Shown: positions 37,600 to 59,200 of the stretch, piece by piece
Layout: each line of letters opens with the position of its first letter
How positions within the stretch are numbered: the first letter of the stretch is position 1
From: Dehalococcoidia bacterium
Lineage (GTDB): Bacteria; Chloroflexota; Dehalococcoidia; UBA2979
DNA length: 64,000 nt
Assembly (NCBI GenBank): GCA_020845735.1
Contig: JADLFF010000058.1
Span: forward strand, 40,368-104,367
Direction of reading: 5' to 3'
Program-made: the position numbers and the translations under genes
Notes under the pieces: model-generated
Seen by the model: only the letters and a program-made list of their open reading frames with translations
Told to the model about the DNA's origin: nothing
Database searches by the model: none

Positions 37600-37700
37600 C
37601 TCCCTCGGCTTGCGGGGGTAGTGATATGTCTCCACATCCGCCGATGTCGGCGCGGACTCGTGGGTTGCGCCCTCCTGCACCCACTTCCGAGGGCCAGGTC

Positions 37701-38909: not shown

Positions 38910-39154
38910 GGCAGCCTCGGCCGGTGGAGGTGGCCCTCGAGGGGGGGCGCCCGGCGCGGGTGACCGTGGAGCGCTCGCGAGTCGCGCGCGTGTTCGAGGT
39001 GGAGGGGGTGCAGGAGGTCTGGCGCGTGGCCGAGGCGTGGTGGCGGGAGGTGCCGGTGCGGCGCACGTACTACCAGGTGGTGGTGGACGGCGGCCGCGCG
39101 CTGACGCTGTTCCAGGACGAGGAGAGTGGTCGGTGGTACGAGCAGCGGTACTGA
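38858..39154 (+). CDS. small protein (98 aa) encoded in an alternative frame overlapping the imuB 3' end; function unknown
   Basis: GTG at 38858, 7 nt after GGAGG (GGTGGTGGAGGTGGAGCC). Overlaps the last 52 nt of imuB. Trp/Tyr-rich C-terminus (WRVAEAWWREV...RWYEQRY). Confidence 0.45.
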   Translation: MESTAGAPLRAHGLRALGQPRPVEVALEGGRPARVTVERSRVARVFEVEGVQEVWRVAEAWWREVPVRRTYYQVVVDGGRALTLFQDEESGRWYEQRY

Positions 39155-43349: not shown

Positions 43350-43424
43350 GGGCCCGTAGCTCAGCGGTAGAGCAGAGGACTTTTAATCCTTCGGTCCAGG
43401 GTTCGAATCCCTGCGGGCCTACCA
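43350..43424 (+). tRNA. tRNA-Lys (anticodon UUU), CCA encoded
   Basis: Cloverleaf: acceptor GGGCCCG/CGGGCCT, D-arm GCTC-AGCGGTA-GAGC, anticodon arm GAGGA-CTTTTAA-TCCTT, T-arm CAGGG-TTCGAAT-CCCTG, then A+CCA. Confidence 0.85.
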
Positions 43425-43431
43425 GTGCGAC

Positions 43432-45114
43432 TCAGTCGGGCAGTAGCCGATCCGACATGAGCCCGCCGCTGGCCTCGAGACCGCGGAGATCGAAGATCAC
43501 GACCTCGTCATTCTCGTAGACCGGCGTGTAGCCGGAGCGGCCGCGCAACTCCTCGGCGAGGACGGCGCAGCAGTCCTCACGTAGCGAGGGCCTCGGGACT
43601 TCCTTGAACACGAAGACGTAGTCGGGGCGTCTCCAGCGGACGAACCACTCCTCGATGCACTGCGCCGAGTCGGCGTCCTGCTTCAGACAGCGCCCCGCCT
43701 CGCGGTTGGCGAGCCAGCGCGGGTAGTAGGCCCCTGCGACCCATTCGTAGCCTGGCACGGTCGTGACGCTACGTCGCTCGGAAAGTGCGGGGAACCACTC
43801 GAGGCCCGGCTCCCATGCCTGAGCATGCATCACGAGGAACGTGCTCTCCGGCGGCGTGCTCTCGCGCGCCCACTCCATCGCCTGACGCTGCGGCGCGGAG
43901 AGTGCCGCGGCAAGGCCCGCCACGACCGGAGCCTGCACACCGAGGAAGGCGCCCACCAGGACGAAGCCGGTGAACAACACCGACGTCGGCATGCGACTGA
44001 GTACGCCCACCGACATCGCCCCCCGGGACGCCTCGAATCGCCGCCACGCCTCGGCCATACCGAGACCGGCGAGCAACGCGACCGGGACCGCCGACATCTG
44101 GTGCTCGCCTCGGATCTGGATGGTGAAGACAGCAGCCAACACCAGTGGTGCGAAGTACTCGCGTCTGCGGAGTGAATGGTAGATGCCGAACACAGCGAAC
44201 GCGCTGAACACAGGGAACAGCTCGCCGCCCCAGATCGGAATGAAGAGACGAACGACGACGCCACCGGGAACGAAGACCTGCGTACTTCCGTCGAGGACCG
44301 CGCCAAACACCTCGAAGCCGTGTTGCTGGACAACGGGGACCCACCACACCGCGGCAACGAGGACTGAGGCCAGGCCGGCAGCCATCGAAGCGACGGTCGC
44401 GCGCCGTGTCCGCCCCAGAGTCAGCAGGAGCGCAAGCGAACCGTGCGCCCCGAACAACGACCAGTCTGTGTGCGAGAGAAGCAGCAGGCCGCCTGCAAGC
44501 ATGGCTCCGGCCAGGTACCGCACACGGTACGTCTGGTAGTACCGCGCCAGAGTCGCGAGCAGCAGCATCGCGAACAGACAACCGAGGGAACGCGTCAGCC
44601 CTCCGCCCGCGGCCTGCCAGGCGTACGTGCCGGGAAGACTGGCGAACGCGGCGGTGCTGAGCCAGGCGACGCGCGGCTCCGAGGTCACGGAGTGGGCAAG
44701 CCAGGCGAACGCGGCGACCGCGAGCGCGCAGACAATCGCGGGCTGCAGCCAGAGGAAATCGAGCACCGGAATACCCGTGATCGATGAGAGGAACCCCACC
44801 TCGTAGAACGCGAGCGGTGGGTACGCGAATGGGATCTGACCTCCGTCGTACGACGCAAACGCGGGGAGGCGGAACCCATTCAACTGCAGGTCACGAATCA
44901 TGAGGTAGAAGAGCCCGCCGTCGAGACGTGGGAAGTCGGTGGACACGGCCCAGCCGATCCGAATCACCGCGCCGAGGGCGATGGCGAGCAGGGTGGGGGC
45001 GTAGCGGCGTGCCCATGCTCCTCGAGGGGTGGGGGCGGGGAACGGGAGGATGCGCGCGCCCTCGAGGGGTGACGGCTGCACGGCACGCTGACGCACGACC
45101 CCTCCTCGTGTCAT
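43432..45114 (-). CDS. polytopic membrane protein with C-terminal soluble domain, GT-C-type glycosyltransferase suspected
   Basis: About 11 TM helices followed by a ~170-aa extracytoplasmic domain with conserved Cys pairs. Architecture resembles PMT/ArnT-like enzymes. Confidence 0.4.
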   Translation of the reverse strand: MTRGGVVRQRAVQPSPLEGARILPFPAPTPRGAWARRYAPTLLAIALGAVIRIGWAVSTDFPRLDGGLFYLMIRDLQLNGFRLPAFASYDGGQIPFAYPPLAFYEVGFLSSITGIPVLDFLWLQPAIVCALAVAAFAWLAHSVTSEPRVAWLSTAAFASLPGTYAWQAAGGGLTRSLGCLFAMLLLATLARYYQTYRVRYLAGAMLAGGLLLLSHTDWSLFGAHGSLALLLTLGRTRRATVASMAAGLASVLVAAVWWVPVVQQHGFEVFGAVLDGSTQVFVPGGVVVRLFIPIWGGELFPVFSAFAVFGIYHSLRRREYFAPLVLAAVFTIQIRGEHQMSAVPVALLAGLGMAEAWRRFEASRGAMSVGVLSRMPTSVLFTGFVLVGAFLGVQAPVVAGLAAALSAPQRQAMEWARESTPPESTFLVMHAQAWEPGLEWFPALSERRSVTTVPGYEWVAGAYYPRWLANREAGRCLKQDADSAQCIEEWFVRWRRPDYVFVFKEVPRPSLREDCCAVLAEELRGRSGYTPVYENDEVVIFDLRGLEASGGLMSDRLLPD

Positions 45115-45205
45115 TCGGTGGGCGCTTACGGAGACTCGACCAGCGTGCCAGCCTCGAGAAGGACCGGGGATGAGGGACGACCCGTAGCCCGCGCCGTGCG
45201 CGTCC

Positions 45206-46546
45206 CTAGGTCTTCGCGGCGCCCTCGGGGTTGCCGCGCACGATGACGAACGAGAGGGCGATGCCGAGGGCGAGCGCGCCACTGCCGACGAGCAGCGCCT
45301 GCCGGTCCATGAAGAACGCGAGGGCGACCGCGCCTCCGAGACCGACAAGCGCGGGAAGCGGCGCGGGACCAATCGAGGGGCCCGCGCGGAACGGACGAGG
45401 CCACTCGGGGTGGATCATGCGGAGGCGGATGAGCGCGGAGTTCACGACGACGAAGAGCGTGAAGACCGCGAAGTTCGTGACCTGGGCCACGAAGCCAATG
45501 TCGCCGCTGAGGGCGAAGACGAGCGCGACCGTCGTTGCGAGGGCGATCGCCACCCACGGTGTTCCTCGACGGGCCCATACTCGCCCGAAGACCGGGGGCA
45601 ACATCCCTCGACGGGCCATGCCGTACATCGCGCGCGGCCCCGTTGCGAGCAACAGGAGCACCGTGTTGAACGTCGCGAAGAGCGCGATGAGCGAGAGGGC
45701 GTCGGCCAGCCGGTCGGACGACTCCGCGCGAACCACCTCGGCGAGCGGCGCGTCCACCGAGGCGAGCGTCTGCCATGGCACCACCGACACCGCGACCGCC
45801 GCGACGAGCACGTAGATCACCGTCGTCACCGCGACGGCGATCAGCAGGGCGCGCGGGATGTTCCTGGTGGGATCGCGCACCTCCTCGGAGAGCGTGGCGA
45901 TCTCCTCGAACCCCTCATAGGCGAAGAACACGAGGGCGGCCGCGGCGAGCAGCCCGGTGGCGCCGTCGTGCACCTCGAGGAGGTTGACGGAGCCCAGGTG
46001 CGGCAGGCCGACGAGGATCACCACGATCAGCCCGCTCGCCTCGATGGCGGCGAAAATACTCGCGAGGCCCACCGTCTCGGAGACACCGAGCAGCACGATC
46101 ACCGCGCAGAGCAGCACGACCACCACGGCGATGACCGTCGGCGACACATCGATGTAGCCGGCGAGGTACCTCGCGAAGCCGAGGGCGACGGCGGGGGCCG
46201 CCACGGCGTTGACGGCGACGTCCATCCACCCCGTCACGAAGCCCACTCGAGGGCCGAACGCGACGCGGGCATAGGCGGATGCGGCGCCGGCCTCGGGGAG
46301 CAGTGCGGTCAGCTCCGCGTACGCGAGGCCCGTCCCGGCTGCGAGCAGGGCACCGACGAGGAAGGCGAGCCACACCCCGTTCCCCGCCACGCCCGCTGCC
46401 TCGCCAATGAGGACGTAGATCCCCGCGCCGAGGACGATGCCGATGCCGGACGCGGACGCACCGAGCAAGCCGATGCGACGCTGGAGCTGGCCCGCGGCGG
46501 GTTGCTCGACGGTCACGGGCGGGACACCTTGCTCATCGTTGCTCAT
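45206..46546 (-). CDS. APC superfamily amino acid permease
   Basis: 12-TM profile with an APC signature region (GIGIVLGAGIYVLIGEAAG). Confidence 0.8.
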   Translation of the reverse strand: MSNDEQGVPPVTVEQPAAGQLQRRIGLLGASASGIGIVLGAGIYVLIGEAAGVAGNGVWLAFLVGALLAAGTGLAYAELTALLPEAGAASAYARVAFGPRVGFVTGWMDVAVNAVAAPAVALGFARYLAGYIDVSPTVIAVVVVLLCAVIVLLGVSETVGLASIFAAIEASGLIVVILVGLPHLGSVNLLEVHDGATGLLAAAALVFFAYEGFEEIATLSEEVRDPTRNIPRALLIAVAVTTVIYVLVAAVAVSVVPWQTLASVDAPLAEVVRAESSDRLADALSLIALFATFNTVLLLLATGPRAMYGMARRGMLPPVFGRVWARRGTPWVAIALATTVALVFALSGDIGFVAQVTNFAVFTLFVVVNSALIRLRMIHPEWPRPFRAGPSIGPAPLPALVGLGGAVALAFFMDRQALLVGSGALALGIALSFVIVRGNPEGAAKT

Positions 46547-46703: not shown

Positions 46704-47516
46704 ATGATGGCGCTGTGGATAACAGAGCAGGGAGTGCTGGTGCAGACCGAGCAGCTTGTCCTGGCCGTCGACGACGAACCAGCCTCGCTGCGAGTCGTGA
46801 AGATCTGCCTCCGCGAGGAGGGGTTCCGGGTCCTCACGGCAGGCTCCGCTGACGAGGCGCTCCGCCTCGCGGAGCAGTACCGGCCGGACGTCGCCGTCCT
46901 CGATGTGATGATGCCGGGCACCGACGGCCTTGAGTTGATGCGCGAGCTGCGCGCGCGCAGCAGCCTGCCGGTGATCCTGCTCACGGGACGCTCGGGCGAT
47001 CGAGACAAGGTGAACGGCCTCGACCTCGGGGCCGACGACTACCTTGTCAAGCCGTTCAACCCGGAGGAGCTGGGAGCGCGGGTGCGCGCGGTGCTGCGAC
47101 GGAGCACGGCGAGCGTGCATCCACCGCAGATCGTGCAGGTCGGCGACCTGGAGATCGACCTCGACCGGCGCCTCGTGAAGCGCGGGGGCGAGCTGATCGC
47201 GCTCACGCGCACGGAGTGGATGCTGCTGCACCACCTAGCCGCGAACCCGGGCAAGGTCATGCTCAACACCGAGCTGCTCACGAAGGTCTGGGGCACCGAG
47301 TACCGCGAGGACTTCCAGTACCTGCGTGTGTGGGTCTCTCGCCTGCGGAGAAAGCTCGGCGACTTTGAGCTGATCCGGACGTTCCAGGGCATCGGCTACA
47401 TGCTCGTCCTCCAGCCCGGCGAAGGTGACGAGGCACGCGTGCTCGTCGAGAGCCGGGACGAGCTGCCGGAAGCTGAGACGATCACTGAGCCCGCGCCCAT
47501 CACTCGAGCAAGCTGA
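46704..47516 (+). CDS. OmpR/KdpE-family response regulator
   Basis: Receiver domain (VLAVDDEP...VAVLDVMMPG...) plus winged-helix output domain (YLRVWVSRLRRKLG). Confidence 0.85.
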   Translation: MMALWITEQGVLVQTEQLVLAVDDEPASLRVVKICLREEGFRVLTAGSADEALRLAEQYRPDVAVLDVMMPGTDGLELMRELRARSSLPVILLTGRSGDRDKVNGLDLGADDYLVKPFNPEELGARVRAVLRRSTASVHPPQIVQVGDLEIDLDRRLVKRGGELIALTRTEWMLLHHLAANPGKVMLNTELLTKVWGTEYREDFQYLRVWVSRLRRKLGDFELIRTFQGIGYMLVLQPGEGDEARVLVESRDELPEAETITEPAPITRAS

Positions 47517-47691
47517 GCGGGCTTCGTGGACCGGCGATAGCGGCCGGCGTCCTCGGCATGGCTCCCTGTCCGATGATTATGTATTGACACCTCGGGGTAA
47601 CGTGTCTGGAGGACATGGAGTCGTTGCCGCCCTCGCACGCGCGATACGTGCATTGACGGGCACACGGAATCGGCGAGGGAGCGCTGCACGC

Positions 47692-49173
47692 ATGGATGAC
47701 GCCCCCACGCGCGTCCTCGAGTCTGCGATCGCCGACGCCGCTGCACCACTCCTGGTCGTCGCCGAGGGAGGCCCTGTCCTCGCGGCCAACGAGGCGTTTC
47801 GGGCGACGTTTGGCGCACCGCCGGACGACCTCGATGGGTTGCGCCTGCTGAGCGCGGAGCCGGTGAGCGACGACGCCTCGAGTGTCGACCTCCCGGCGCT
47901 GTTGCGCGAGGCGAAGCCGGCGAGCGGCATCGCGCTGCTGCGAACTATCAACGGTGAGCCTGTCAGGACCGGTTACAGCGTCACGCCCCTCGGTGAAGGC
48001 GCGCCGTACCACGGCGCCATCCTCGCGCTGCAGCCCCTGGAGGCTCCGTCGCTGACCCCCGAGCCTGCCTTCACCGCCCTCGCCGAGTCGGCGCCGTGCA
48101 TCGCGTGGGTCGCGTCAGTCGATGGTGCCGTGCTGTTCCGCAATCGCGAGTGGGACGCGGGCGGACCGGTCGGGCCGACCTCTGCCCCACTGACGGCGCT
48201 CCATCCTGACGACATCGAGCGTTGCCGCGGCCTCTGGGAGTCGGCGCTGCGCGAGGGCGTGATGTACGAGGCGGTCGCGCGGCATCGGGTGGACGACACC
48301 TATCGCGAGTTCCTGACGCGCGCGGCGCCCCTGACGAACGAGATCGGTGAGGTCGTCGCCTGGTTCGGAACCACCACCGACCTCGAGCCGGTGAACGCGG
48401 TCGAGCGGTCGAGCGGCGAGCGGGGGGACGGCGAGGGGGGCGGTGACCGCGAGAGCAAGACCGTCCTCGCGGTCGCGTCGCACGAGCTGCGCGCACCCCT
48501 CGCGGTGCTGCGCGGGATGGCGCAGATCACCCGCCGGCGCTCGGAGCAGCAGCAGTTGAGTGACCGCGAGCTGCGGGAGGCCCTCGCGATGATCGAGGGA
48601 CAGGCCGACCGAACGTTGCTGCTCGTCGAGCAACTCCTCGACCACGCACGCCTCGGTGTGGGGAAGCTCGAGCTCCAGCGCGGCAAGTGCGACGTGACGA
48701 ACCTCGTGCGCGGCGTGGTCGACCGCGTGAACGCAGCGCACGAAGGACGGGTCATCGAGGTGCGGGCCGCGGGGCCGGTGACGGCGAGTGTCGACGCGCC
48801 ACGCATCGAGCAGGTGCTGATGAACCTCCTCGACAACGCGATCAAGTTCAGCCCGGCCGACAGTCGCATCGACGTCCGGGTGGTCCGCGTCGTGAGTGGC
48901 GAGGACGAGGTCGCCGAGATCGCCGTCCGCGACCGCGGTCGGGGGATTCCGGTGAGTGAGCGCTCGCTGATCTTCGAGCGCTTCCACCAGGTGACGAGCG
49001 ACGACGCCTCGAAGGGGATGGGCCTCGGACTGGCGATCTGCAAGGAGATCGTGGAGCTGCACGGCGGGACGCTCTCGGTGGGTACGCCGCGCGGCGGAGG
49101 TGCTCGCTTTGTCGTGCGCCTGCCCGTGACGCAGCCGGCGGAGCTGCAGCGGCCGCACGGGGCGAGTCGCTAG
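47692..49173 (+). CDS. cytoplasmic PAS-domain sensor histidine kinase
   Basis: No TM segments. PAS-like regions, H-box VASHELRAPLAVL, N-box MNLLDNAIKFS, G1 RDRGRGIP, G2 GMGLGLAICK. Confidence 0.8.
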   Translation: MDDAPTRVLESAIADAAAPLLVVAEGGPVLAANEAFRATFGAPPDDLDGLRLLSAEPVSDDASSVDLPALLREAKPASGIALLRTINGEPVRTGYSVTPLGEGAPYHGAILALQPLEAPSLTPEPAFTALAESAPCIAWVASVDGAVLFRNREWDAGGPVGPTSAPLTALHPDDIERCRGLWESALREGVMYEAVARHRVDDTYREFLTRAAPLTNEIGEVVAWFGTTTDLEPVNAVERSSGERGDGEGGGDRESKTVLAVASHELRAPLAVLRGMAQITRRRSEQQQLSDRELREALAMIEGQADRTLLLVEQLLDHARLGVGKLELQRGKCDVTNLVRGVVDRVNAAHEGRVIEVRAAGPVTASVDAPRIEQVLMNLLDNAIKFSPADSRIDVRVVRVVSGEDEVAEIAVRDRGRGIPVSERSLIFERFHQVTSDDASKGMGLGLAICKEIVELHGGTLSVGTPRGGGARFVVRLPVTQPAELQRPHGASR

Positions 49174-49561: not shown

Positions 49562-50408
49562 GCACTCTTCCGGCTCGAGGGGTGCACGGGGGCACCCGCG
49601 ATTTACGGATTATAGAGTGCGGCGCGGCGCGACCGCGGTCAGGGAGACTCACACGAACGGACTCGTCGACGGGGACCTGCCGGACCACCGAGTCATTGCC
49701 AGCGCGCCATCGACGGAGGCAGCCGATCGCGAAGAGCTGCTGGCGCGCGGCGCCCACGAACTCCTGAATCCACTTGCCAATGTCCTGGGCTTCGCGCACG
49801 TGCTCAACCGGCTGGCGGCGAACCGCCCGGCCGACTGGAGCCCCGAGTCTCGCACCAGCATCTCGATGCTGGTGAGCGAGGCGGAGCGGCTGAAGACCGT
49901 GAGCGAGGCCTTTGTGGAGCTGCTGCGCCTGCGTGACGGCGTGTTCCGCCTCGCGACGAGCGACGTGGAGGTGGACGCGCTGGTCCACGAGGAGGTGCGA
50001 GCGCTGGGGCGCCGCTGGCCCGGTGTGCGCATCAACGAGGAGTACGGCGAGACGACCGCCGTGCTCCGCACCGACGAGGTGCGCTTGCGCTTCGTGATCC
50101 GCGCCATCCTCGACAGTGCGGCGCGGTCGCTATCGGGAGCGCCGGGGCGCGTGAGCGTGTCGCGGTCACCGATCGGTGGGGCGCGCATCGGTGTGCGGGT
50201 GCCGGTGCTCGAGGCGCAGGCGGCGGCCCTCATTGTCGGTGGGGGGTTCGACGACCCGGCGCTGGACGAGGAGCTCGCCGGTGACCTGGACCTCGCTTCT
50301 GCGGTGACGCGGAAGATCGCGCGCCACCTCGGGCTTTCGATCGCGCTGGTGCGGCAGGCCGGCCAGGTGGGCGCCGACATGGTGATCTCGATCCCGCCCT
50401 CGGTCTGA
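49560..50408 (+). CDS. degenerate histidine kinase-like protein (H-box retained, ATP-lid motifs eroded)
   Basis: H-box GAHELLNPLANVLGF is present. The N-box is replaced by RAILDSAARS (both Asn lost), there is no DxGxG G1 box, and only an HLGLSIAL remnant of G2. True start is probably downstream of 49560, for example GTG at 49617. Confidence 0.5.
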   Translation: MHSSGSRGARGHPRFTDYRVRRGATAVRETHTNGLVDGDLPDHRVIASAPSTEAADREELLARGAHELLNPLANVLGFAHVLNRLAANRPADWSPESRTSISMLVSEAERLKTVSEAFVELLRLRDGVFRLATSDVEVDALVHEEVRALGRRWPGVRINEEYGETTAVLRTDEVRLRFVIRAILDSAARSLSGAPGRVSVSRSPIGGARIGVRVPVLEAQAAALIVGGGFDDPALDEELAGDLDLASAVTRKIARHLGLSIALVRQAGQVGADMVISIPPSV

Positions 50409-50481
50409 CGCGGTGGGCTGAGGGGTGGGGCGGCCCTGCCGAGGGCGGCACGCCTCCTCGAACGTCCTCGACTGGTGCTGC

Positions 50482-51693
50482 CTAGAACGGTGTTTCGACC
50501 GGGCGTCGTGCGTTCACGCCTCGGACGACGGCCACGCCGGTGACCACCACGACGGCGAGCATGGCCACGAGGCCAACGATCACCGACAGCCATGCGGGGC
50601 CGGCGGACAGCGCGGGCGGCGGCTCGTCGGGAGTGGTGGCGAAGGCCTCGAGGCGTTGCACCGTGGCAGGGGCGTGCCCCGAAGTGTAGTCGGCGAGCAC
50701 CTCGAGGGCGCGCGTGCCGAGCTTGCCGCTGGGCTCGATCTGCGTGTTCTCGTCGAACTCGTTCCAGCTGATGATGCCGAGTGCGTCCGGCCGAGACTCC
50801 AGTGCCGTGTCGATGGCCTCGATGAACGTGCGCCCCTCGAAGCGATCGATGACACGCGTGGCGCCGAGGAGGGACGCGTCGAAGCCCGGCGCGGCCGGAG
50901 CGATCCACATCCCCTTGCCGACCGCCTCGCGGAGGCTGAGCAGCCGCGCGACGTGCGCCTCGCGGCGGCTCGGATCGGCGGACGACCAGTAGTAGGCGTT
51001 GCCATCGAGGACGGACGCGACTCGCGCGTAGCCGTCGGCGTCGCGCTCGGATCCGAGCAGCAGCATGCCGAGGGGCTGCCCCGGGTCGCTGGGATCGCGC
51101 GGGTGCGCCAGGCGGTGCTGTCCGGAGAGGATCGTGAGGTCATCGAGCGAGTACTCCCACGTGCCGTCGATGATCACGAGGGGCTGGCCGAACACATCGA
51201 AGACCGGGTCGCGTGCCCAGCGCTCGGCGAAGAAGTCAAGGTCCGCAGCGACCTGGGCGATGGACACCGGACGGCGGTTCTCATCGAGAGCCGCGTAGTG
51301 GATCGCGAGCTTGAAGTTCTGGGAGCGCGCTTCCTGCACGAGCAGGTCGAGCGCGTGGTTGAGCACCTCGTTGGAGTGCCAGTGGACGATGAACGCGCGG
51401 ACCCCGGCGTCCCGGGCCATGCGAATGTGCTCTCGAATGGCCTCGGGGGAATCGCTGGTGTAGCGGCCGAGGGCGGGGATGTCACGCTTGTGCTGCCACC
51501 ACGACTCGTTGGTGTGGGAGATGAAGTAGTAGGCCATGACGGGCACGTTCACGCGCGCCTGCTCGACAGGACGGGGCGGGGCGTCGGGCCGAGGCGCACG
51601 TGCCGCCATCGAGGGGCGCAGGGTCACGGCGCAGACGGCGACGGCCACCGTGACCGCGACGAGAACGAACGCGGCGCGCCCGGCGCTAGGCAC
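50482..51693 (-). CDS. membrane-anchored glycoside hydrolase, GH99 (endo-alpha-mannosidase)-like
   Basis: N-terminal signal anchor. YYFISHT...LGRYTSDSPEAIREHIRMARDAGVRAFIVHWH resembles the GH99 block around the catalytic region. C-terminal TM helix. Confidence 0.4.
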   Translation of the reverse strand: MPSAGRAAFVLVAVTVAVAVCAVTLRPSMAARAPRPDAPPRPVEQARVNVPVMAYYFISHTNESWWQHKRDIPALGRYTSDSPEAIREHIRMARDAGVRAFIVHWHSNEVLNHALDLLVQEARSQNFKLAIHYAALDENRRPVSIAQVAADLDFFAERWARDPVFDVFGQPLVIIDGTWEYSLDDLTILSGQHRLAHPRDPSDPGQPLGMLLLGSERDADGYARVASVLDGNAYYWSSADPSRREAHVARLLSLREAVGKGMWIAPAAPGFDASLLGATRVIDRFEGRTFIEAIDTALESRPDALGIISWNEFDENTQIEPSGKLGTRALEVLADYTSGHAPATVQRLEAFATTPDEPPPALSAGPAWLSVIVGLVAMLAVVVVTGVAVVRGVNARRPVETPF

Positions 51694-53038
51694 TGGCGGG
51701 CTCCACTCGAGTGGCCCTCCTGAGGCTCAGCGCGGTCAGCACGCCCGCTGCGACGACCGCACCGCCATAGAGGAGGTACGTCGGGAGATAGGACGAGCGC
51801 GTCACGGTCTCCCGGCGCGTGCTCGAGAGGAAGACCGGGGACCTCGGTGGCACGGTGAAGTCGAGAGCCTCGCGAATGCTGTTCGCCCGCGCATCCCGGG
51901 TGGCGAGCGGTTGCAGGTCCCAGTTCTCCTCGATGAAGCGCAGGAACGAGGTGAAGTCGAGCTCTGTGTGGTCCACCACGCCCTCGCGAGCGTAGGCCGA
52001 GACGAGGAGCGCGGGGACTCGGAACCCGTAGCCGTCGCGGTCGACCTCCGGCGGAGCGACGTGGTCGTACCAGCCTCCGGCGCTGTCGTAGGTCCAGGCG
52101 AACGCAGCCGTCTCCCAGTACCGCGAGCGCATGAGCGTCGTGACGAGGTTGCGCACCAGCGACTGCCCCGCGGCGATGCTGCCCGGCGGGTGTTCACTCG
52201 AGCTGGCCGGGACCACATAGGCGACGTTCGGGAGCGAACCGCGCTCGAGGTCGGCGAAGTACTCGGAGAGGTCGACGATGCGCCCGTTGAGGACGGGGTC
52301 GTCGAGGAAGCGATCGATGGCGAGGAGCGGCACCCAGGAGACCTGTGCACGGCGGTTCGGGGGCGCGCTCGCGAGCGTGCGGTAGGTGACGGAGGGGTCG
52401 TAGTCCTCGACGTAGACCTTCCACGACACGCCGGCCTGGCTGAGGCGGTCGAAGATCGTGGGGATGTTGGCGGGCACCCCTCGAGGCGGAACGGCGTCGA
52501 GACCGGCGCTCGTCCCGGCCATCCAGAACATGTGGTTGGCGAAGCTGCCGCCCGTCGACGACTGGAAGAAGCGATCGAAGAGCACGAAGTTGTCGGCGAC
52601 GTTCCAGTAGTACGGGATGTCCTCCCCGTCGTAGTGGCCCATCGTGGGGTGCACCGTCGAGCCGGGCTGGAGCGCGGCCGCCACGAACCCGTTCATCTGG
52701 CCGTCGCGGAACTGCGCGCGGAACGCGGCGGCATCGTGGGGGAGGTCACGCGCAGGACTCATGCCCAGGCGGAACGGACGGACACACTCCGAGTCCGCGC
52801 GATCCGGCGCGATGGGCACGCAGGTGTCACGCGGGACACCATCGGCGCCGGGGTAGGAGCCGAAGTAGTTGTCGAACGAGTGGTTCTGCTGCATGAGGAC
52901 GATGAAGTGCTCGATGGGTGTGCGCGGTGGGCGGGCGGCCTGCGCGTCGGCCGGGCTCGCCTCGGGAGGAGCGAGCAGCACGACCGCCGCAAGCGTCGTG
53001 ACCAGCAGCACGAGGGCGAGCCTGACCGCGGCCGGCAT
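51686..53038 (-). CDS. phosphoesterase family protein (phospholipase C / AcpA acid phosphatase family), membrane anchored
   Basis: IEHFIVLMQQNHSFDNYFGSYPGADG is the PF04185 signature. Signal peptide and a C-terminal TM helix. Confidence 0.7.
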   Translation of the reverse strand: MPAAVRLALVLLVTTLAAVVLLAPPEASPADAQAARPPRTPIEHFIVLMQQNHSFDNYFGSYPGADGVPRDTCVPIAPDRADSECVRPFRLGMSPARDLPHDAAAFRAQFRDGQMNGFVAAALQPGSTVHPTMGHYDGEDIPYYWNVADNFVLFDRFFQSSTGGSFANHMFWMAGTSAGLDAVPPRGVPANIPTIFDRLSQAGVSWKVYVEDYDPSVTYRTLASAPPNRRAQVSWVPLLAIDRFLDDPVLNGRIVDLSEYFADLERGSLPNVAYVVPASSSEHPPGSIAAGQSLVRNLVTTLMRSRYWETAAFAWTYDSAGGWYDHVAPPEVDRDGYGFRVPALLVSAYAREGVVDHTELDFTSFLRFIEENWDLQPLATRDARANSIREALDFTVPPRSPVFLSSTRRETVTRSSYLPTYLLYGGAVVAAGVLTALSLRRATRVEPASA

Positions 53039-54846
53039 CAGGGCCGCACCTCGTAGACGATGGTGATCGGGAAGGTCGTGCGCTCGCCCGCGGTCAGCCG
53101 CTCACCCTCGAAGCGGTAGATCTCGCGAGCGTTGTAGCGCTCCGCGTAGGCCAGGAGCCGGTCTGCCTCGCCGGGGAACGCCTCGGCGGAGTACGTGTCC
53201 CAGACGATGTACTGCAGGGCCGACTGGCGAATCAGCAGGTCCGGGTTCTCGTTGGGGCGGTCGTCCGAGGTGGCGAGCGGCGCGGACGAGGTGAGCCCGA
53301 GCGTCTCGCGCTGCGCGTAGAACTCGAGGACTCCGGCAAACGCACGGTCCGTGGTGAGCAGCGCTGCGCCCGGCGGAACGTGCTCCCCGATCCACCTCGC
53401 CGTGTCGCGCCCACCGATGATACCGGGGACGTGGGCCGAACCGGCGATGTTGGGCGCCATGCCGAGCAGGATCGCCGTCGAGATGGCGAGCACACCGAGG
53501 CCCACGGCCGACACCGCCATCTCTGTGGTGGGTGCGAGCTCGCGGCCCACGAGGCGTGGGAGCTCGGCGAGTGCGCGCGCGGCGAGGACCGCGAGGGGAG
53601 GCGCGATGCCGGCGAGGTCGGCGAAGGTCCGGTCGGGCCACGCGAGCAGGAGTGCGGACGGCACGACGATCCAGAGCCCGAGGAGCACCTCCCGCCAGGT
53701 GCGCCGACGCCTCGCGAGGACGGCCGTGCCGACCGCGCCGAGCAGCACGGTGAGGCCGAACGCGGGAACCACCTCGCCCAGCTGGAGGTACCAGGGACGG
53801 CCGGAGCCGAGCAGGGCGCGCACGATCGAGCCGGCCCAGAGGGGCCCCTGGCCGGAGAGCCCGTAGGCCAGCGGCAGGACGAAGCCGAACGACCCCACGA
53901 TCGCGAAGGCACCGACGAGCGTGCCTCGACTGATGGACGTCCAGCGACGATGCGACACGAACAGGAAGAAGACGGGGACGTAGGCGATCGAGGAGGCATC
54001 GGTGAGCAGCGCCAGGCCGAGGCAGACCGCGCCGACGGTGACCCACGGCCCGCGCTCGGTGGAGGCGAACCGGGCGACGGCCGCGAGGCTGAGCGTGACC
54101 CAGAGCGCCGCCAGCACCTCGGGGCCCACCGCGCGCGACGCGATGACGTGGTAGGGCATCAGCGCCAGCAGCAACGCCGCGAGGGTCGCCTCGCGCGCTC
54201 CCCACATGCTGCGCGCGACAGCGTACGTCGCGAGCGCAGTCACGACGCCGATCGCTGCGACCAGCAGCCGCGCGACGATGTCGTGGGCGCCGAAGACCGC
54301 GAACAGGCCTCCCAGCACGAGCTGGAAGAGCTGCGCCTCGCCTCGGGCGGATGGGAACAGCTGCGCGAGCGCGCCGCTTCCGAGGAGCGAGCCCGCCTCG
54401 CCGGCGGTTGCCGCCTCGGTCGCGTCGAGGCCAATCGCGCCGAGTCCCCAGACACGCAGGTAGAGCGCCGTGAGCGCACCCGCTGCGAGCAGCGCGGCCG
54501 CCACCGGCTGAGCGCGCAGGCGCTCGAGGATGGCGGGCGCAGGAGGCGGGGGCGCAACGACGGTCGCCTCGCCCGAGGCTGTGCGCGGTGCACCGCGCGC
54601 GGCTGCGGCATCGATGTTGACGCCCCAGCGACTCGCCCGGGATTCCGGTGGCTCTGGCGGGTTGATTTGTGCGCTCAGGCTCTGAGTATCCGTTCTGATG
54701 TCATCCCGACGTCTCAGCGAATAGTGCTCAGGAGCTGCAAGAGTCGAACGGTCCCGAGGCGGCGAATGTGCTCGTCGGATTCGCGCTGGCGATTCCGCAC
54801 AGTGTAGATAGCTACTCACAGTCGCGCACTGGTGGAGAAGACCCAC
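53038..54846 (-). CDS. glycosyltransferase family 39-like (PMT/ArnT-type) polytopic membrane protein
   Basis: Polytopic, with a D-ATEA-containing first loop (YLRVWGLGAIGLDATEAATAGEAG) and a C-terminal soluble domain. Stop overlaps the phosphoesterase start. N-terminal boundary is uncertain. Confidence 0.5.
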   Translation of the reverse strand: MGLLHQCATVSSYLHCAESPARIRRAHSPPRDRSTLAAPEHYSLRRRDDIRTDTQSLSAQINPPEPPESRASRWGVNIDAAAARGAPRTASGEATVVAPPPPAPAILERLRAQPVAAALLAAGALTALYLRVWGLGAIGLDATEAATAGEAGSLLGSGALAQLFPSARGEAQLFQLVLGGLFAVFGAHDIVARLLVAAIGVVTALATYAVARSMWGAREATLAALLLALMPYHVIASRAVGPEVLAALWVTLSLAAVARFASTERGPWVTVGAVCLGLALLTDASSIAYVPVFFLFVSHRRWTSISRGTLVGAFAIVGSFGFVLPLAYGLSGQGPLWAGSIVRALLGSGRPWYLQLGEVVPAFGLTVLLGAVGTAVLARRRRTWREVLLGLWIVVPSALLLAWPDRTFADLAGIAPPLAVLAARALAELPRLVGRELAPTTEMAVSAVGLGVLAISTAILLGMAPNIAGSAHVPGIIGGRDTARWIGEHVPPGAALLTTDRAFAGVLEFYAQRETLGLTSSAPLATSDDRPNENPDLLIRQSALQYIVWDTYSAEAFPGEADRLLAYAERYNAREIYRFEGERLTAGERTTFPITIVYEVRP

Positions 54847-54942
54847 ACAGATTCCGCGAGGGCGGATGCGCCACCGGTCTGCGACGAGTACTCGACGCTT
54901 CGATGGTTAGAGTGGATGCAACTCGGGTGCGGGAAGGTCTGT

Positions 54943-55926
54943 ATGAGGGCGATCATACTCGCCGGTGGCGAAGGCACGAGGCTGCGCCCGCTCACCACAT
55001 CGTTGCCGAAGCAGCTGGTCCCGGTCCTCAATCGGCCGTTCATCGAGTACCAGTTGCGCTACCTGTTGCGCCACGACGTGACGGAGGTCACCCTCGCGCT
55101 CACGAGGAACGCGCACAGCGAGCGACTGCGGGCCGCCCTCGGTGACCGTGCGCACGGCATCGACATTCGCTACGCGTACGAGGAGCAGCCGCTTGGATCG
55201 GGCGGTGCGATTGCCGGGGCTGCGGCCGGTTGGACCGAGCCCTTCCTCGTGTGCAACGGCGACATCGTGACGGACGTCGACATGAGCGCGCTGATCGAGG
55301 CGCATCGGGCGGCACGTGCCGAGCTCACCCTGTTCTTGCAGCCCGTCGAGAACCCGTCCGCGTACGGCGTCGTGGCTCTGAACGACAGCAGCGAGGTCAC
55401 ACGATTCGTCGAGAAGCCCGCTCCCGGCACCGAGCCGTCAAACCTCGTGAACGCCGGGATCTGGCTGTTCGAGGCGCATCTCCTGCAGGAGATGACGGCG
55501 ACGCGCGCGAACCAGGTCGAGAAGGAGCTCTTCCCGACGCTCGCCTCCTCGGGGCGGCGAGTCCTGGGGTACCAGGCGCCCACGCCGGCCTACTGGCGCG
55601 ACATCGGCACGCCGCGGACCTACCTCGAGGCGAACATCGACGCGCTGCTCGGCCGCGTGAGCGGCCTCGAGACCACCGGCTCGCGCGATGGCCACATGCT
55701 CCCGAGCGACATCGAGGTCCACACGACCGCCACGGTGCGGCACGCGGTGGTCGGCGCGCGCAGCGTCCTCGAGGCGGGTGTGCATGTCGAGTCGTCCGTG
55801 CTCTGGGAGCGCGTGCGCGTCGGCGAGGGCGCGATCGTGCGCGACAGCGTCCTGGCCTCGGATGTGGTGATCTCGCCCGGTGCGGTCGTCGAGGGCCAGA
55901 CGCTCGGCGAGGGCGAGCGCGTCTAG
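54943..55926 (+). CDS. mannose-1-phosphate guanylyltransferase (NDP-sugar pyrophosphorylase with C-terminal LbH domain)
   Basis: MRAIILAGGEGTRLRPLT...LPK nucleotidyltransferase signature, plus a hexapeptide-repeat C-terminus. Confidence 0.8.
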   Translation: MRAIILAGGEGTRLRPLTTSLPKQLVPVLNRPFIEYQLRYLLRHDVTEVTLALTRNAHSERLRAALGDRAHGIDIRYAYEEQPLGSGGAIAGAAAGWTEPFLVCNGDIVTDVDMSALIEAHRAARAELTLFLQPVENPSAYGVVALNDSSEVTRFVEKPAPGTEPSNLVNAGIWLFEAHLLQEMTATRANQVEKELFPTLASSGRRVLGYQAPTPAYWRDIGTPRTYLEANIDALLGRVSGLETTGSRDGHMLPSDIEVHTTATVRHAVVGARSVLEAGVHVESSVLWERVRVGEGAIVRDSVLASDVVISPGAVVEGQTLGEGERV

Positions 55927-56029
55927 CCTCCAGCGTCCGGCCTTGATCCCCCTGGCGCCTCGCCTCAGCGCCTAATCGTCACGACTCGGACGGCGCGTAC
56001 CCTGCTCGGTCTGCCGGGTCGGGCCGCCG

Positions 56030-57067
56030 TCAGTGGACCGCGGGGACGCGGACCATGTCCTTCTTGAACCGCTCGAGGGCGGACGTGTCGGCAGGGTCGA
56101 CACCGCTCATCGCGGCCAGCTCCCAGGACAGCCAGTCGCCGAGGACGGCTCCGCGCAGCATCACGTCCAGCGGGGTCACCCCGGGCACGAGCACCCGCTC
56201 GTAGGCGACGCCGTGCTCGCGGAGGAGTTGCTCGGTGAGATCGACGCGGCGGCGGGCGCGCTCGTTCGACAGCTCGGAGTCGAGGAGCATCGCGACGATC
56301 GCGTCGGCGTGCCGGTCGGTGAGTGCCAGCAGGAAGTTGTGGTTGATCTCCGGGATCTCTCCGAAGAACGCCACGCGCTTCGAGTTCTCGTTGATCTGGC
56401 TCGCCCAGCGGCGTGCGACCGGAACCAGGTGCTCCGCGCCCACGACGAAGGGAATCCGGTCGGCGAGGGGTGGAGCGAGGACCGTGGCGAAGGCGCGCAG
56501 GACCGGCGCCTGCTCCTCCAGCGCAGCGAGGGCCGCCTCCGCGTCCCCCTCGTACGCCGGAGTCAGCCCCATGCGCGTGAGCAGCGCGAGCACCGGCAGG
56601 AAGCCGAACTCCCAGGCCGTCCGCGGAGGGCCATCGCAGTGGTACTCGATCACGTCGGCGCCGAGGGAGACGGCCAGCTCGGTGATGGCACCACCCGTGC
56701 TCACGATGAGCTTGCGGGCGCTGCGCGCCTCGCGGGACTGGAGCGCGAAGAGCGTCTCCTCCGTGTTGCCGGAGAACGAGCTGGCGATAACGAGCGTGTC
56801 CTCGTCGCACGGTGGGAGGACGTAGTCGCGCACGACCTCGACGGGGAGCACGTGACGGAGGGCGGCGCGGAGGAAGTCGGCGCCGATGGCGGACCCACCC
56901 ATGCCGACGACGACGATTCGCCTCGGCAGGACCGAGGTGGGCGAGAGGGCACGGTCCCCGAGTGCCCAGGCATCGCGGGCCTCGGCGGGGAATCGCTGGA
57001 TGCGCGATTCCATGACCTCGATGCCGGCGCGCATGTCGATACCTGGACGCGGCTCGCTGATGACCAA
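56030..57067 (-). CDS. bifunctional phosphoglucose/phosphomannose isomerase (SIS domain)
   Basis: SIS motif VVVGMGGSAIGADF, a second SIS-like half, and the typical PGI/PMI length. Confidence 0.65.
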   Translation of the reverse strand: MVISEPRPGIDMRAGIEVMESRIQRFPAEARDAWALGDRALSPTSVLPRRIVVVGMGGSAIGADFLRAALRHVLPVEVVRDYVLPPCDEDTLVIASSFSGNTEETLFALQSREARSARKLIVSTGGAITELAVSLGADVIEYHCDGPPRTAWEFGFLPVLALLTRMGLTPAYEGDAEAALAALEEQAPVLRAFATVLAPPLADRIPFVVGAEHLVPVARRWASQINENSKRVAFFGEIPEINHNFLLALTDRHADAIVAMLLDSELSNERARRRVDLTEQLLREHGVAYERVLVPGVTPLDVMLRGAVLGDWLSWELAAMSGVDPADTSALERFKKDMVRVPAVH

Positions 57068-57264
57068 CGGGACCCCCCATCGCCGTTCGCATGTGCGATG
57101 CTAGGTGTTGTCCCCTGACGGGAGTGGAACACCCCGGCGCGGCGTCTCTCAGAGCCCTTTCAACAGCAGCCGGCAACATCGACGCGGCGTGACGGTGTTC
57201 GTCCGCGTGCGGAGCGGCTAGCATCTAGGCTTCCGCAGGATGCCTGAATCACCCAGGGAGCGGG

Positions 57265-57951
57265 ATGCCTCCTCGCCAGCTTCTTCCGATGGCCATCACG
57301 CTGTTCGCGATGGCGTGCGGACTCGGCGCCATCGAGGCAAGCCGGGTGGGTGATGCGCACCTCGCGCTGCGCCTGATCCTGCTGGCCGCGATTGCGGACG
57401 GCGTGGATGGGACCGTCGCGCGCCGCCTCGGTGTAGCGGGGGCATTCGGCGGCGAGCTGGACTCCCTGTCCGACATCATTGCGTTTGGCGTTGCGCCAGC
57501 GTTCCTCTTCTCGGGCGTGTATGGCGAGGTGTTCGCGCCGCTCCGGCTGATCCTCGTGATTGTGTTTGTGGGAGCGGGCGCGTTCCGCCTCGCGAGGTTC
57601 CACGTCCTGCCGAGCGGGCCGTACTTCGTCGGCCTGCCGATCCCGAGCGCCGGCATCCTGCTGGCGGCGAGCGTCGCGGGGCCGTTCACGCCGAATCCCG
57701 TCGTCGCGGGCGGCATCGCGGTCGCGCTCGCGGCGCTGATGGTCAGCAAGCACCCGTTCCCCACGTTCGCACAGTGGCGGAAGGCGCTCCTCGGGGCGCT
57801 GGTCGCCTCGGCGGCGCTGATTGCGATCTGGCCTTCGGGCGAGGCGCTGGCCATCGCCTCGCTGGCCGTGATCGCGAGCTACGTGCTGTGGGGCTTCGCG
57901 GTGGAGCTCATCGGCGGTGACGAGGCCTCGATGGGACGGACCCGCGCATGA
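57265..57951 (+). CDS. pssA: CDP-diacylglycerol--serine O-phosphatidyltransferase (CDP-alcohol phosphatidyltransferase family)
   Basis: DGVDGTVARRLGVAGAFGGELDSLSD matches D-G-x2-A-R-x8-G-x3-G-x3-D. Confidence 0.75.
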   Translation: MPPRQLLPMAITLFAMACGLGAIEASRVGDAHLALRLILLAAIADGVDGTVARRLGVAGAFGGELDSLSDIIAFGVAPAFLFSGVYGEVFAPLRLILVIVFVGAGAFRLARFHVLPSGPYFVGLPIPSAGILLAASVAGPFTPNPVVAGGIAVALAALMVSKHPFPTFAQWRKALLGALVASAALIAIWPSGEALAIASLAVIASYVLWGFAVELIGGDEASMGRTRA

Positions 57952-58544
57952 CCGGCCGGACCGAGACCGCACTCGCGCGCTGGGACTTCCTGAAGGCCTA
58001 CGTCAGGGACTGGCACACAGTCGGCGCCGTCGCCCCGACCAGCCGCGCGGTTGCGCGGAAGATGGCCACCCTCGGAGGGGTGCAGTACGCCCGGGCGATC
58101 GCCGAGTTCGGGCCGGGGACCGGCGCGATCACCGGGGAGCTCCTCGCGGCGCTGCCTGCCGACGGGCGCATGTGGGCGTTCGAGGTCTACGAGCCGTTCG
58201 TCGAGCACCTGCGGGAGCACGTGCACGACTCGCGGTTCACGCTGCTGCAGCGTTCCGCCGCCGACATCGGTGAGATTCGCCGCGCCGAGGTGCCGGGCGG
58301 CTTCGATGCCGTGATCTCCTCGATTCCGTTCAGCCTGATCGGCCCGGACGGGACGCGCGAGATCGTGCGCGCGGTCGCCGAGAACCTGCGGCCCGGGGGC
58401 ATGTTCGTCGCGCTGCAGTACCACCCGACGTTCCTGCGGCCCTACCTGCTGGAGGAGTTCGAGCAGGTGCGCCGGAACCCGTACCCCTGGAACATCCCCC
58501 CCACCCTGCTGCTGACCGGGCGAGGCGTCCGACGGCGGACGTAG
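57948..58544 (+). CDS. class I SAM-dependent methyltransferase, phospholipid N-methyltransferase (PmtA)-like
   Basis: VAPTSRAVARKMA...EFGPGTGAITGEL motif I. ATGA-coupled to pssA and followed by psd. Confidence 0.5.
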   Translation: MTGRTETALARWDFLKAYVRDWHTVGAVAPTSRAVARKMATLGGVQYARAIAEFGPGTGAITGELLAALPADGRMWAFEVYEPFVEHLREHVHDSRFTLLQRSAADIGEIRRAEVPGGFDAVISSIPFSLIGPDGTREIVRAVAENLRPGGMFVALQYHPTFLRPYLLEEFEQVRRNPYPWNIPPTLLLTGRGVRRRT

Positions 58545-58588
58545 GCGACCCTCGGTGGCGGGCGTGGTCCGAGGGCGCGCCCCTGCTC

Positions 58589-59200
58589 ATGGGGTGCGCC
58601 GCGGCGTCGTTACTCGGCCTGCGCGTGGCGCGTCCCGCCGCACTCCTCGGGCTCGCCGCGTTCGCGGGTGTGGCGTTCGCCTTCCGCGACCCCGAGCGCG
58701 ACGTCGTGCATCAGCCGGACGTCGCCCTCGCACCCGGCGACGGGCGCGTCCTCCACGTGGCCACGGTGTACGACGAGTTCTGGGAGACCGAACTCCTCGA
58801 GGTGGGCATCTTCCTCGCGCTGTGGAACGTGCACGTGCAGCGAGCACCTCTCGATGGACGTGTCGTCGCGCAGCGTCGGAAGGCGGGCGGCTACCGGCCC
58901 GCGATGACGGCCGCCGCGACGCACGGGAACAACCAGCTCGCGACGTACCTCCGCACCCCTGCCGGGCCGTGCACCGTGACGCAGATCAGCGGCATCGCGG
59001 CGCGACGCATCGTGTCGTGGATCGGCGAGGGTGAGGAGCTCGCGCAGGGTGAGCGGATGGGCATGATCAAGTTCGGGTCGCAGGTCACGCTGCGCGTGCC
59101 CTCGAGCTCCCGCCTGCTCGTCGACGTAGGTGACCAGGTGCGCGCGGGGATCACGCCGCTGGCGCGCCTGCCCCGCCTCGACGGTACGGACGAGGCGTGA
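58589..59200 (+). CDS. psd: phosphatidylserine decarboxylase (short archaeal-type proenzyme)
   Basis: N-terminal TM anchor and an FGS self-cleavage motif (GMIKFGSQVTL). Confidence 0.7.
   Translation: MGCAAASLLGLRVARPAALLGLAAFAGVAFAFRDPERDVVHQPDVALAPGDGRVLHVATVYDEFWETELLEVGIFLALWNVHVQRAPLDGRVVAQRRKAGGYRPAMTAAATHGNNQLATYLRTPAGPCTVTQISGIAARRIVSWIGEGEELAQGERMGMIKFGSQVTLRVPSSSRLLVDVGDQVRAGITPLARLPRLDGTDEA

Follow-up and report, generated by a model that had tools for sequence, protein, structure and literature searches.

A putative cell-envelope glycosylation cluster of Chloroflexota and its reduced form with a membrane-anchored GH99-like protein in a Dehalococcoidia bacterium

The stretch of DNA studied here, referred to throughout as the window, comprises 64 kb of a metagenome-assembled genome of a Dehalococcoidia bacterium (phylum Chloroflexota) with a local guanine plus cytosine (GC) content of ~70%. 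It holds five adjacent genes, named A to E (Table 1), that encode a GH99-like protein (A), a phosphoesterase of the PF04185 family (B), a GT-C membrane protein (C), a sugar-1-phosphate nucleotidyltransferase (D) and an SIS-domain protein (E). We argue below that genes C, B and A are a reduced and functionally shifted derivative of a five-gene set, F-C-B-G-A, which forms a conserved, uncharacterized cell-envelope glycosylation cluster in more than 400 species. A preliminary description of the window had listed the same five genes and their domains, and these calls stand, as all five proteins score above the Pfam curated thresholds (here and below, Pfam matches are judged against gathering scores and NCBIfam matches against curated cutoffs). 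Its account of C, B and A as three translationally overlapping minus-strand genes is likewise correct: the stop codon of C and the start codon of B share one base (cccTGATGccg), and the stop codon of B overlaps the GTG start codon of A by 8 nucleotides (GTGCCTAG). All five open reading frames (ORFs) have third-position GC contents (GC3) of 0.85-0.90, which is coding-like for the region, and GC drops to 0.66 in the intergenic region between the divergent genes C and D. A consensus scan of positions 50300-57300 returned no sigma-70-like promoter or terminator-like match, and an Rfam search over the whole window found nothing but one transfer RNA (tRNA) gene, with no match between C and D. The most likely start of D is the ATG at 54943 (MRAIILAGG), where solved homologs align from their own residue 1, and the start of C is uncertain, the candidates being GTG 54846, GTG 54819 and the GTG at 54504 chosen by NCBI, which yields a protein of 488 amino acids.

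The GH99-like assignment of A, made in the preliminary description from its resemblance to endo-alpha-mannosidases, was confirmed by several lines of evidence. Its match to the Pfam profile PF16317 (Glyco_hydro_99) reaches 60.9 bits (gathering score 33), so that the hidden Markov model search returns the same family rather than an unrelated one, and a profile built from 20 homologs of A retrieves from the PDB the GH99 enzymes BtGH99 (4acy, E = 3.5e-20), BxGH99 (5e-14) and human MANEA (3e-13). The AlphaFold2 (AF2) model of A has a predicted local distance difference test (pLDDT) score of 80.8, and in a Foldseek search of the PDB with this model ranks 1-36 are all occupied by GH99 structures (target-normalized TM-scores of 0.61-0.71), followed by GH71, at sequence identities of 15-22%. 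Residues E312, E315 and Y235 of A align with E333, E336 and Y252 of BxGH99, which act as the general base on the 2-hydroxyl group, the general acid and a conserved active-site tyrosine, respectively (PMC6001782). The corresponding positions are kept in 79 of 80, 79 of 80 and all 80 orthologs. On the strength of its profile, its fold and this Glu/Glu/Tyr conservation, A has the GH99 catalytic apparatus, although by sequence it belongs to a distant GH99 subfamily, which comprises ~395 clusters (50% identity) at E<=1e-30, as compared to 5,221 at E<=1e-3. The protein is predicted to begin with a hydrophobic signal or anchor, which is followed by a (beta/alpha)8 domain and, at the C-terminus, by a transmembrane (TM) helix that is present in 67 of 76 orthologs. 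A thus shares its fold (TM-score up to 0.71), general base, general acid and active-site tyrosine with the characterized GH99 enzymes, and differs from them in its low identity, in its tethering to the cytoplasmic membrane via the C-terminal helix, and in its setting: known GH99 enzymes function in a Golgi pathway or are encoded in a polysaccharide utilization locus, whereas A sits in a biosynthetic-looking operon.

B is related to the AcpA/PlcH-type enzymes, which include Francisella AcpA, Pseudomonas PlcH and M. tuberculosis PlcA-D, and differs from them at its metal site and in its membrane attachment. It matches Pfam PF04185 over nearly the whole profile (positions 1-355 of 356) with 246.7 bits against a gathering score of 23, and its best solved relative is AcpA from Francisella (2d1g, 4.4e-31). 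The NCBIfam models for this superfamily stay far under their cutoffs, with 160 bits for PC_PLC (TIGR03396, cutoff 580) and 170 bits for acid_phos_Burk (TIGR03397, cutoff 363). In common with the AcpA/PlcH-type enzymes, B has a full-length domain, the serine nucleophile (Ser165, equivalent to AcpA Ser175, with a serine kept in 66 of 68 orthologs) and most phosphate-binding residues. AcpA residues E43, N44, D386 and D387, which the paper on the 2d1g structure is said to describe as metal-binding, correspond to Q51, N52, D318 and S319 in the B protein of the window, so that two of the four ligands are replaced (Glu by Gln and Asp by Ser). The canonical E-N-D-D set is retained in 49 of the 68 B orthologs, and a parallel change of Glu to Ser and of Asp to Ser or Gly has occurred in an actinobacterial subclade. 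Judged by this alignment, the metal site of B in the window is non-canonical. Also unlike the AcpA/PlcH-type enzymes, B is predicted to have a C-terminal TM helix in addition to its N-terminal signal or anchor, a C-terminal anchor being found in 56 of 67 orthologs, and it is partnered by GT-C and GH99-like genes. The membrane anchoring that had been proposed for A and B therefore holds, each protein having an N-terminal hydrophobic segment and a C-terminal TM helix. A sortase-type signal was considered for the C-terminal TM helix and its basic tail; a conserved FDSS motif is found 15-20 residues ahead of the helix, an arrangement unlike that of known signals.

C had been described as a GT39-type transferase, and is labeled 'glycosyltransferase family 39 protein' by NCBI. 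It does pass the Pfam profiles PMT_2 (51.7 bits, gathering score 26.1) and PMT (PF02366, 29.2 bits, gathering score 22.7), which it has in common with the GT39 protein O-mannosyltransferases (PMTs) such as yeast Pmt1/2/4, M. tuberculosis Rv1002c and the Streptomyces Pmt that operates with Ppm1. A phmmer search of C against the PDB gave no match; its profile does retrieve Pmt4 (3.6e-5) and Pmt1 (1.1e-4), the best sequence-level PDB matches, yet at E-values of ~1e-4 to 1e-5 this similarity is confined to TM helices 3-6. The AF2 model (pLDDT 83.3, predicted TM-score 0.86) reveals a clear GT-C fold of ~12 TM helices followed by a C-terminal soluble extracytoplasmic alpha/beta domain of ~120 residues. 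When this model is compared to known structures with Foldseek, ALG12 (0.68/0.70) and ArnT (0.65/0.61) have the best TM-scores, the oligosaccharyltransferases (OSTs) AglB/STT3 have the best E-values, and Pmt4 appears at rank 27 (0.49/0.50). In further contrast to the PMTs, C contains no PMT_4TMC match in Pfam at E<=0.01 and no MIR domain. Because its sequence match covers only TM helices 3-6 and its fold is nearer to ALG12, ArnT and OST, membership of C in GT39 is not established, and 'PMT_2-type GT-C' is the safe label.

The C family nonetheless shares with the PMTs two motifs in its first two loops, as well as nearby genes for GDP-mannose supply, and it is in these motifs that the protein of the window departs from its relatives. 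An N-[ST]-D-E motif in loop 1, the first external loop, is found in 69 of the 73 C orthologs that cover it, and loop 2 contains an R-x4-D motif in 74 of 75. In the window, loop 1 reads G-L-D-A-T-E, with Thr43 in place of the aspartate, and loop 2 has a glutamate (R138, E143), the sole exception in the family. The corresponding loop-1 aspartate of MtPMT, the M. tuberculosis PMT, is Asp74, the sole residue that has definitely been shown to be essential in PMTs: the D74A and D74N mutants are inactive and D74E has marginal activity, and similarly activity is abolished in D176A and D176N and weak, close to nil, in D176E (PMC12331936).

The genes C, B and A are part of a larger set that recurs in many relatives of the window. 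Scanning one genome per species, we found relatives of A in 461 species genomes. Most carriers belong to the Chloroflexota (Anaerolineae, Chloroflexia, Dehalococcoidia, Thermomicrobia and Limnocylindria), others are Actinomycetota (Lentzea, Kibdelosporangium, Amycolatopsis decaplanina, Umezawaea, Thermoleophilia, Gaiellaceae and Acidimicrobiales), and one is a member of the Trueperaceae. Among the loci collected (numbered with the prefix L), L043, deposited as 'Rhodococcus rhodnii NRRL B-16535', is nearly identical in protein sequence to L044 from Kibdelosporangium aridum DSM 43828, and its assembly label may be wrong. In five neighborhoods of homologs with 44-51% identity, genes for a GT-C protein, a PF04185 protein, usually an Ig-like protein, and a GH99-like protein occur together, mostly preceded by a gene for a protein of ~780 residues with GT2 and GtrA_DPMS_TM domains. 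When 86 loci were surveyed by tblastn, most of those with enough flanking sequence had these genes on a single strand in the order F-C-B-G-A, where F stands for the GT2 protein and G for the Ig-like protein, which lies between B and A in full clusters; an F-like sequence lay beside the cluster in ~70 of the 86. This full arrangement, present in the majority of 80 fetched loci and also in locus L088 from the clade of the window, is taken to be the ancestral one. We regard the five genes as the conserved unit because beyond them no ORF family recurred in more than 15 loci in an all-against-all clustering of 80 fetched loci. There are also single predicted proteins in which G is fused to A (P0139, P0141, P0143 and P0147) and one in which B is fused to A (P0140), which supports joint action of the proteins on the outer face of the membrane. 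The three genes C, B and A are thus co-conserved across Chloroflexota and Actinomycetota, and the claim that the system is uncharacterized agrees with our literature search, in which no published description of the F-C-B-G-A gene set was found. In several loci the full cluster is followed by additional metallophosphatase, CBM96, PF04185 and GH99-like genes (L003 9352-17182; L006 9445-13161; L088 11309-13918 and 17319-18827), and this hints at a phosphate-containing substrate. Protein G was also considered as a Ser/Thr/Pro-rich acceptor of O-mannosylation; such a stretch is present in just 3 of 59 orthologs, and the idea was dropped.

F is a predicted polyprenyl-phosphate-sugar synthase of the GT2 family that is fused to a GtrA-type TM domain (PF04138, GtrA_DPMS_TM) and to a cytoplasmic P-loop domain. 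Its GT2 domain is best matched by the polyprenyl-phosphate glycosyltransferases PgfS, ArnC, AglJ and PpgS, and its C-terminal ~380 residues are cytoplasmic, with a Walker-A-like sequence (TDTGKTTT) and faint similarity to HPr-kinase-C/ScmC. The preliminary description had proposed that a polyprenol-phosphate mannose synthase (ppm1) be sought elsewhere in the genome; because a GT2 plus GtrA synthase opens the F-C-B-G-A order, this 'ppm1' sits within the cluster of the relatives, and it is absent from the 64-kb window. Neither F nor G was found in the window by tblastn, even at a relaxed threshold of E<=1 using the two F proteins (F1 and F2) and G of locus L088 as queries, and no GT2 or GtrA domain was present among the other window ORFs that were scanned.

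The absence of F and G is shared with the closest relatives of the window. The C-B-A form occurs in the window, L007, L087 and L001 (L008 being the same locus), and C and A alone are found in L089. In a neighbor-joining tree without support values these reduced forms are monophyletic, and their sister group contains L088, in which A is 57% identical to that of the window. The flanks of L088 resemble those of the window (E, a divergent D, and HisKA/two-component genes), and it has a full set in which F is split in two and followed by C, B, G and A, with canonical motifs throughout. The four exceptions to the loop-1 motif of C are all members of reduced clusters (DATE in the window, DSRE in L007, NHAE in L008 and GPTE in L089), so that loss of the loop-1 aspartate coincides exactly with loss of the synthase F: it is seen in four reduced members and in none of the other 69 orthologs. 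The catalytic residues of A are retained in the window, L007, L087 and L089. In L008, a 51%-identity relative, both catalytic glutamates of A are replaced (by Gly and Asp) and the serine nucleophile of B has become Gly, with both ORFs intact; judging from these substitutions, A and B of L008 are possibly pseudo-enzymes. Comparison to L087, whose proteins are 87-92% identical to those of the window, yields ratios of nonsynonymous to synonymous substitution rates (dN/dS) of 0.13 for A, 0.075 for B and 0.17 for C, the last for its C-terminal 346 residues only. Since these ratios lie between 0.07 and 0.17, the three genes are maintained by purifying selection. Because F is absent, the catalytic aspartate of C is lost and metal ligands of B are lost, we view the window as a reduced, functionally shifted derivative of the cluster and not as an intact operon for mannosylation and remodeling. 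The mannan or mannoprotein remodeling system that had been proposed thus holds up as an uncharacterized and co-conserved gene set, but the copy in the window is reduced, with C and B altered. Its comparison to the protein O-mannosylation and lipomannan/lipoarabinomannan (LM/LAM) pathways of actinobacteria was the wrong frame, as the genome is that of a member of the Chloroflexota.

Genes D and E bear on the identity of the sugar. D matches the Pfam NTP_transferase profile with 162 bits and has additional matches to a left-handed beta-helix at its C-terminus. Its best PDB matches are mannose-1-phosphate guanylyltransferases (7x8j, 1.2e-40; 8yre, 1e-40; GMPPB 7d72, 1e-38), and the next specificity class, UGPase, is about ten orders of magnitude weaker (1e-30). 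By these comparisons D is a probable mannose-1-phosphate guanylyltransferase of the GMPPB/Rv3264c-like type. The best NCBIfam model, man1P_GTase_Rv, scores 245.6 bits, under its cutoff of 440, and the sugar specificity of D is for this reason something that we infer. E matches the Pfam bact-PGI_C (125 bits) and SIS (31 bits) profiles, and its NCBIfam PGI/PMI matches (198 bits with a cutoff of 471, and 185.5 with a cutoff of 213.9) are all below threshold. The earlier reading of D as a GDP-mannose-making enzyme is therefore favored by the structural matches though not by the NCBIfam cutoff, and the reading of E as an SIS-type bifunctional PGI/PMI agrees with its domains, at scores below the NCBIfam cutoffs. 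D is divergent to C in L001, L007, L088 and L089, E adjoins D in L007, L088 and L089, and the E-D pair adjoins the cluster throughout the clade of the window, including the full cluster of L088; L004, a distant locus, has a ManC-type gene between F and C. The GH99 fold and the Glu/Glu/Tyr set of A point to the same sugar, since alpha-mannosides are the substrates of known GH99 enzymes. The link to mannose drawn in the preliminary description is thus plausible, and from its gene context mannose is our best guess for the sugar.

From the observed gene content, synteny, residue states and selection we infer how the full system would operate, including its sugar, its acceptor and each biochemical step. 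D would make GDP-mannose in the cytoplasm, with E feeding in mannose-6-phosphate, and F would charge polyprenyl phosphate with the sugar, its GtrA-type domain helping to flip the carrier across the membrane. At the surface of the membrane C would then hand the sugar on to an acceptor outside the cytoplasm, and there the membrane-tethered proteins B, G and A would bind and process the product, A possibly as a retaining endo-alpha-mannosidase or transglycosidase and B as a phosphodiester hydrolase or phospho-group transferase. In the lineage of the window, F and G would have been deleted and the catalytic aspartate of C and two metal ligands of B lost, with A remaining complete as the one canonical enzyme; at present A would trim or turn over an alpha-mannoside-containing envelope glycan, and C and perhaps B would act as non-canonical or non-catalytic membrane partners. 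The full cluster of the relatives resembles the Gtr-type systems (Shigella Gtr, B. subtilis CsbB/GtcA/YfhO and mycobacterial PpgS/Rv3632/Rv3779) in having a GT2 synthase fused to a GtrA-type TM domain and then a GT-C protein, and in its logic, in which a lipid carrier is charged inside and the sugar is transferred outside. It differs from the described Gtr-type systems in that its synthase carries a P-loop domain and that it includes three further co-conserved ecto-proteins (B, G and A), and the window differs further in that it lacks an adjacent synthase or flippase gene and its C protein lacks the catalytic aspartate. Cellulose biosynthesis offers an analogy, as the exopolysaccharide operon that encodes BcsA/BcsB/BcsZ/BcsG pairs a synthase with a periplasmic glycosidase and a phosphotransferase of the alkaline-phosphatase superfamily. 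In each system a glycosyltransferase of the membrane is joined by a periplasmic protein that is Ig-like or binds carbohydrate, by an endo-glycosidase and by a phospho-enzyme that has a Ser nucleophile and works on the outer side of the membrane, but their parts are non-homologous and the donor here would be a lipid-phosphate sugar rather than a nucleotide sugar.

The best explanation of these data, and in our judgment a moderately probable one, is that the window contains a reduced derivative of an envelope glycosylation cluster that has become a trimming or turnover module centered on A. Several points weigh against it. The genome could encode a polyprenyl-phosphate-mannose synthase outside the 64-kb window; D41, two residues before Thr43, might substitute for the lost aspartate, such that C could still be active; and Gln and Ser remain capable of coordinating a metal, which may leave B active with an altered metal preference. 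Furthermore, the tree that groups the reduced forms has no support values, the dN/dS value of C covers a C-terminal part of the protein and not its catalytic loops, the sugar is deduced from neighboring genes and from the specificity of GH99 relatives as distant as 15-22% identity, and the extra metallophosphatase, CBM96 and PF04185 genes hint at a phosphate-related role that the model leaves unexplained. The first of these points is central to a rival account, in which the window encodes an intact GT39 system for the O-mannosylation of proteins or lipoglycans whose product is remodeled by A and B and whose carrier synthase is encoded elsewhere. Such a system would agree with the scores of C above the PMT and PMT_2 gathering thresholds and its NCBI name, the adjacent genes for GDP-mannose supply, the purifying selection on all three genes and the intact catalytic set of A. 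We nevertheless consider it unlikely, because the loop-1 and loop-2 aspartates of the window C protein are replaced by Thr and Glu, positions at which MtPMT is inactivated by D74A and D74N and hardly recovers with D74E or D176E (PMC12331936), because the aspartate was lost exactly where the dedicated synthase F was lost, and because the fold of C, in which no PMT_4TMC domain was detected, is no nearer to PMTs than to ALG12, ArnT and OST. A more speculative and rather improbable extension is that the full cluster is an envelope-assembly machine of Chloroflexota and some Actinomycetota, in which a membrane-proximal glycan built from a lipid-phosphate-linked mannose donor would be attached or decorated, and not degraded, by A as a transglycosylase and B as a phospho-group transferase or ligase (LCP- or BcsG-like), and C of the window clade would be a dead but selected 'pseudo-glycosyltransferase' that scaffolds A.

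The extra phosphoesterase genes figure in a further alternative, that of a phosphate-scavenging or lipid-remodeling island under two-component control, in which B and related phosphoesterases would free phosphate or head groups from phospholipids or phosphoglycans, and glycoconjugates devoid of phosphorus, supplied or trimmed by C and A, would take their place. This scheme fits the Metallophos, CBM96 and PF04185 genes that follow the cluster in L003, L006 and L088, as well as a two-component system and a HisKA-only protein (weakly similar to PhoR/PnpS) that are syntenic in the window clade and an adjacent PssA, N-methyltransferase and Psd head-group operon. Yet C and A persist and it is B that degenerates, through its ligands in the window, its nucleophile in L008 and the disappearance of its gene in L089; matches of the regulator are generic, as RpaB, MtrA and PhoB score alike; and the extra phosphoesterases occur in a minority of loci and the lipid operon is syntenic in a narrow clade only, all of which make a phosphate island distinctly improbable. 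Simple decay, with the three genes heading toward pseudogenes after the loss of F and G, could account for the progressive losses (F and G, then B in L089) and for the missing catalytic residues of both A and B in L008. It is very improbable for the window, where the ORFs are intact and still translationally coupled, dN/dS is 0.07-0.17 relative to a close (87-92% identical) relative, and the catalytic residues of A are kept, as they are in L007, L087 and L089. Finally, the characterized bacterial GH99 enzymes break down yeast mannan (PMC6001782) and A is predicted to be extracytoplasmic, and the locus might by analogy to the Bacteroides GH99 endo-mannanases serve to catabolize foreign alpha-mannan. 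This reading is the most far-fetched, as the conserved unit includes no sugar transporters, exo-mannosidases or catabolic genes, and A is anchored in the membrane of the cell that makes it, its gene always being accompanied by GT2 and GT-C genes of biosynthetic type.

The surroundings of the five genes are summarized in Table 1. Next to E, three plus-strand genes form a phospholipid head-group operon (57265-59200), and the same trio flanks E-D-C-A in L089; the operon may be relevant to B or may be a coincidence. Just beyond A are the genes for a response regulator, a kinase and a HisKA protein, which are syntenic in L087, L088 and L089. Assignment of this two-component system as PhoPR would rest on generic matches (PhoR and PnpS, with RpaB, MtrA and PhoB scoring similarly). 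Farther away, an ImuB-like gene (IMS family) followed by a gene for a DnaE2-like error-prone DNA polymerase III alpha (37560-43277, plus strand) constitutes a mutagenesis cassette unrelated to the cluster, and beside the tRNA gene lies a minus-strand ORF of 646 codons (43432-45372) with coding-like GC3 and no Pfam or NCBIfam match.

Table 1. Features of the window and positions of synthase F in related loci (locus coordinates for F).
Feature	Position	Strand	Basis or remark
Gene A, GH99-like, 403 amino acids	50482..51693	-	Pfam, fold, catalytic residues
Gene B, PF04185 phosphoesterase (AcpA/PLC superfamily), 450 amino acids	51686..53038	-	Pfam
Gene C, GT-C membrane protein, PMT_2/PMT type	53038..54846	-	Pfam, AF2 fold
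C/D divergent intergenic region, presumed promoter region	54847..54942	.	longer if C starts further downstream
Gene D, sugar-1-phosphate nucleotidyltransferase with C-terminal left-handed beta-helix (LbH)	54943..55926	+	ORF open from 54832
Gene E, SIS-domain PGI/PMI-like	56030..57067	-	convergent with D
PssA-like CDP-alcohol phosphatidyltransferase	57265-57951	+	
Methyltransferase resembling phospholipid/ornithine-lipid N-methyltransferases	57948-58544	+	
Phosphatidylserine decarboxylase	58589-59200	+	
OmpR-type response regulator	46704-47516	+	
PAS histidine kinase	47425-49173	+	
HisKA-only protein, 282 amino acids	49560-50408	+	
tRNA gene	43350-43421		Rfam
F, synthase carrying, or then followed by, P-loop domain	L003 913-3261; L043 2557-4926; L088 3652-4791		

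Knowledge of Chloroflexota envelopes is sparse, and the gene set of this cluster has yet to be linked to any glycoconjugate pathway. Its presence as a self-contained unit of five genes in more than 400 species provides a concrete and testable entry point to envelope glycosylation, for which Kibdelosporangium, Lentzea, Amycolatopsis decaplanina and Thermalbibacter longus are culturable carriers. The labels 'GT39 family protein' and 'phospholipase C' on these genes should not be taken for demonstrated activities. What the cluster unites is a lipid-linked-sugar transferase with GH99-like and PLC-like enzymes that are tethered at the outer face of the membrane, and A places GH99, a family familiar from the processing of N-glycans and the catabolism of mannan, in a setting that looks biosynthetic. 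The reduced clade of the window represents a natural experiment, in which the donor synthase and the aspartate of the GT-C protein were lost together and the gene remained under purifying selection, which suggests a second, non-catalytic role for the GT-C protein.

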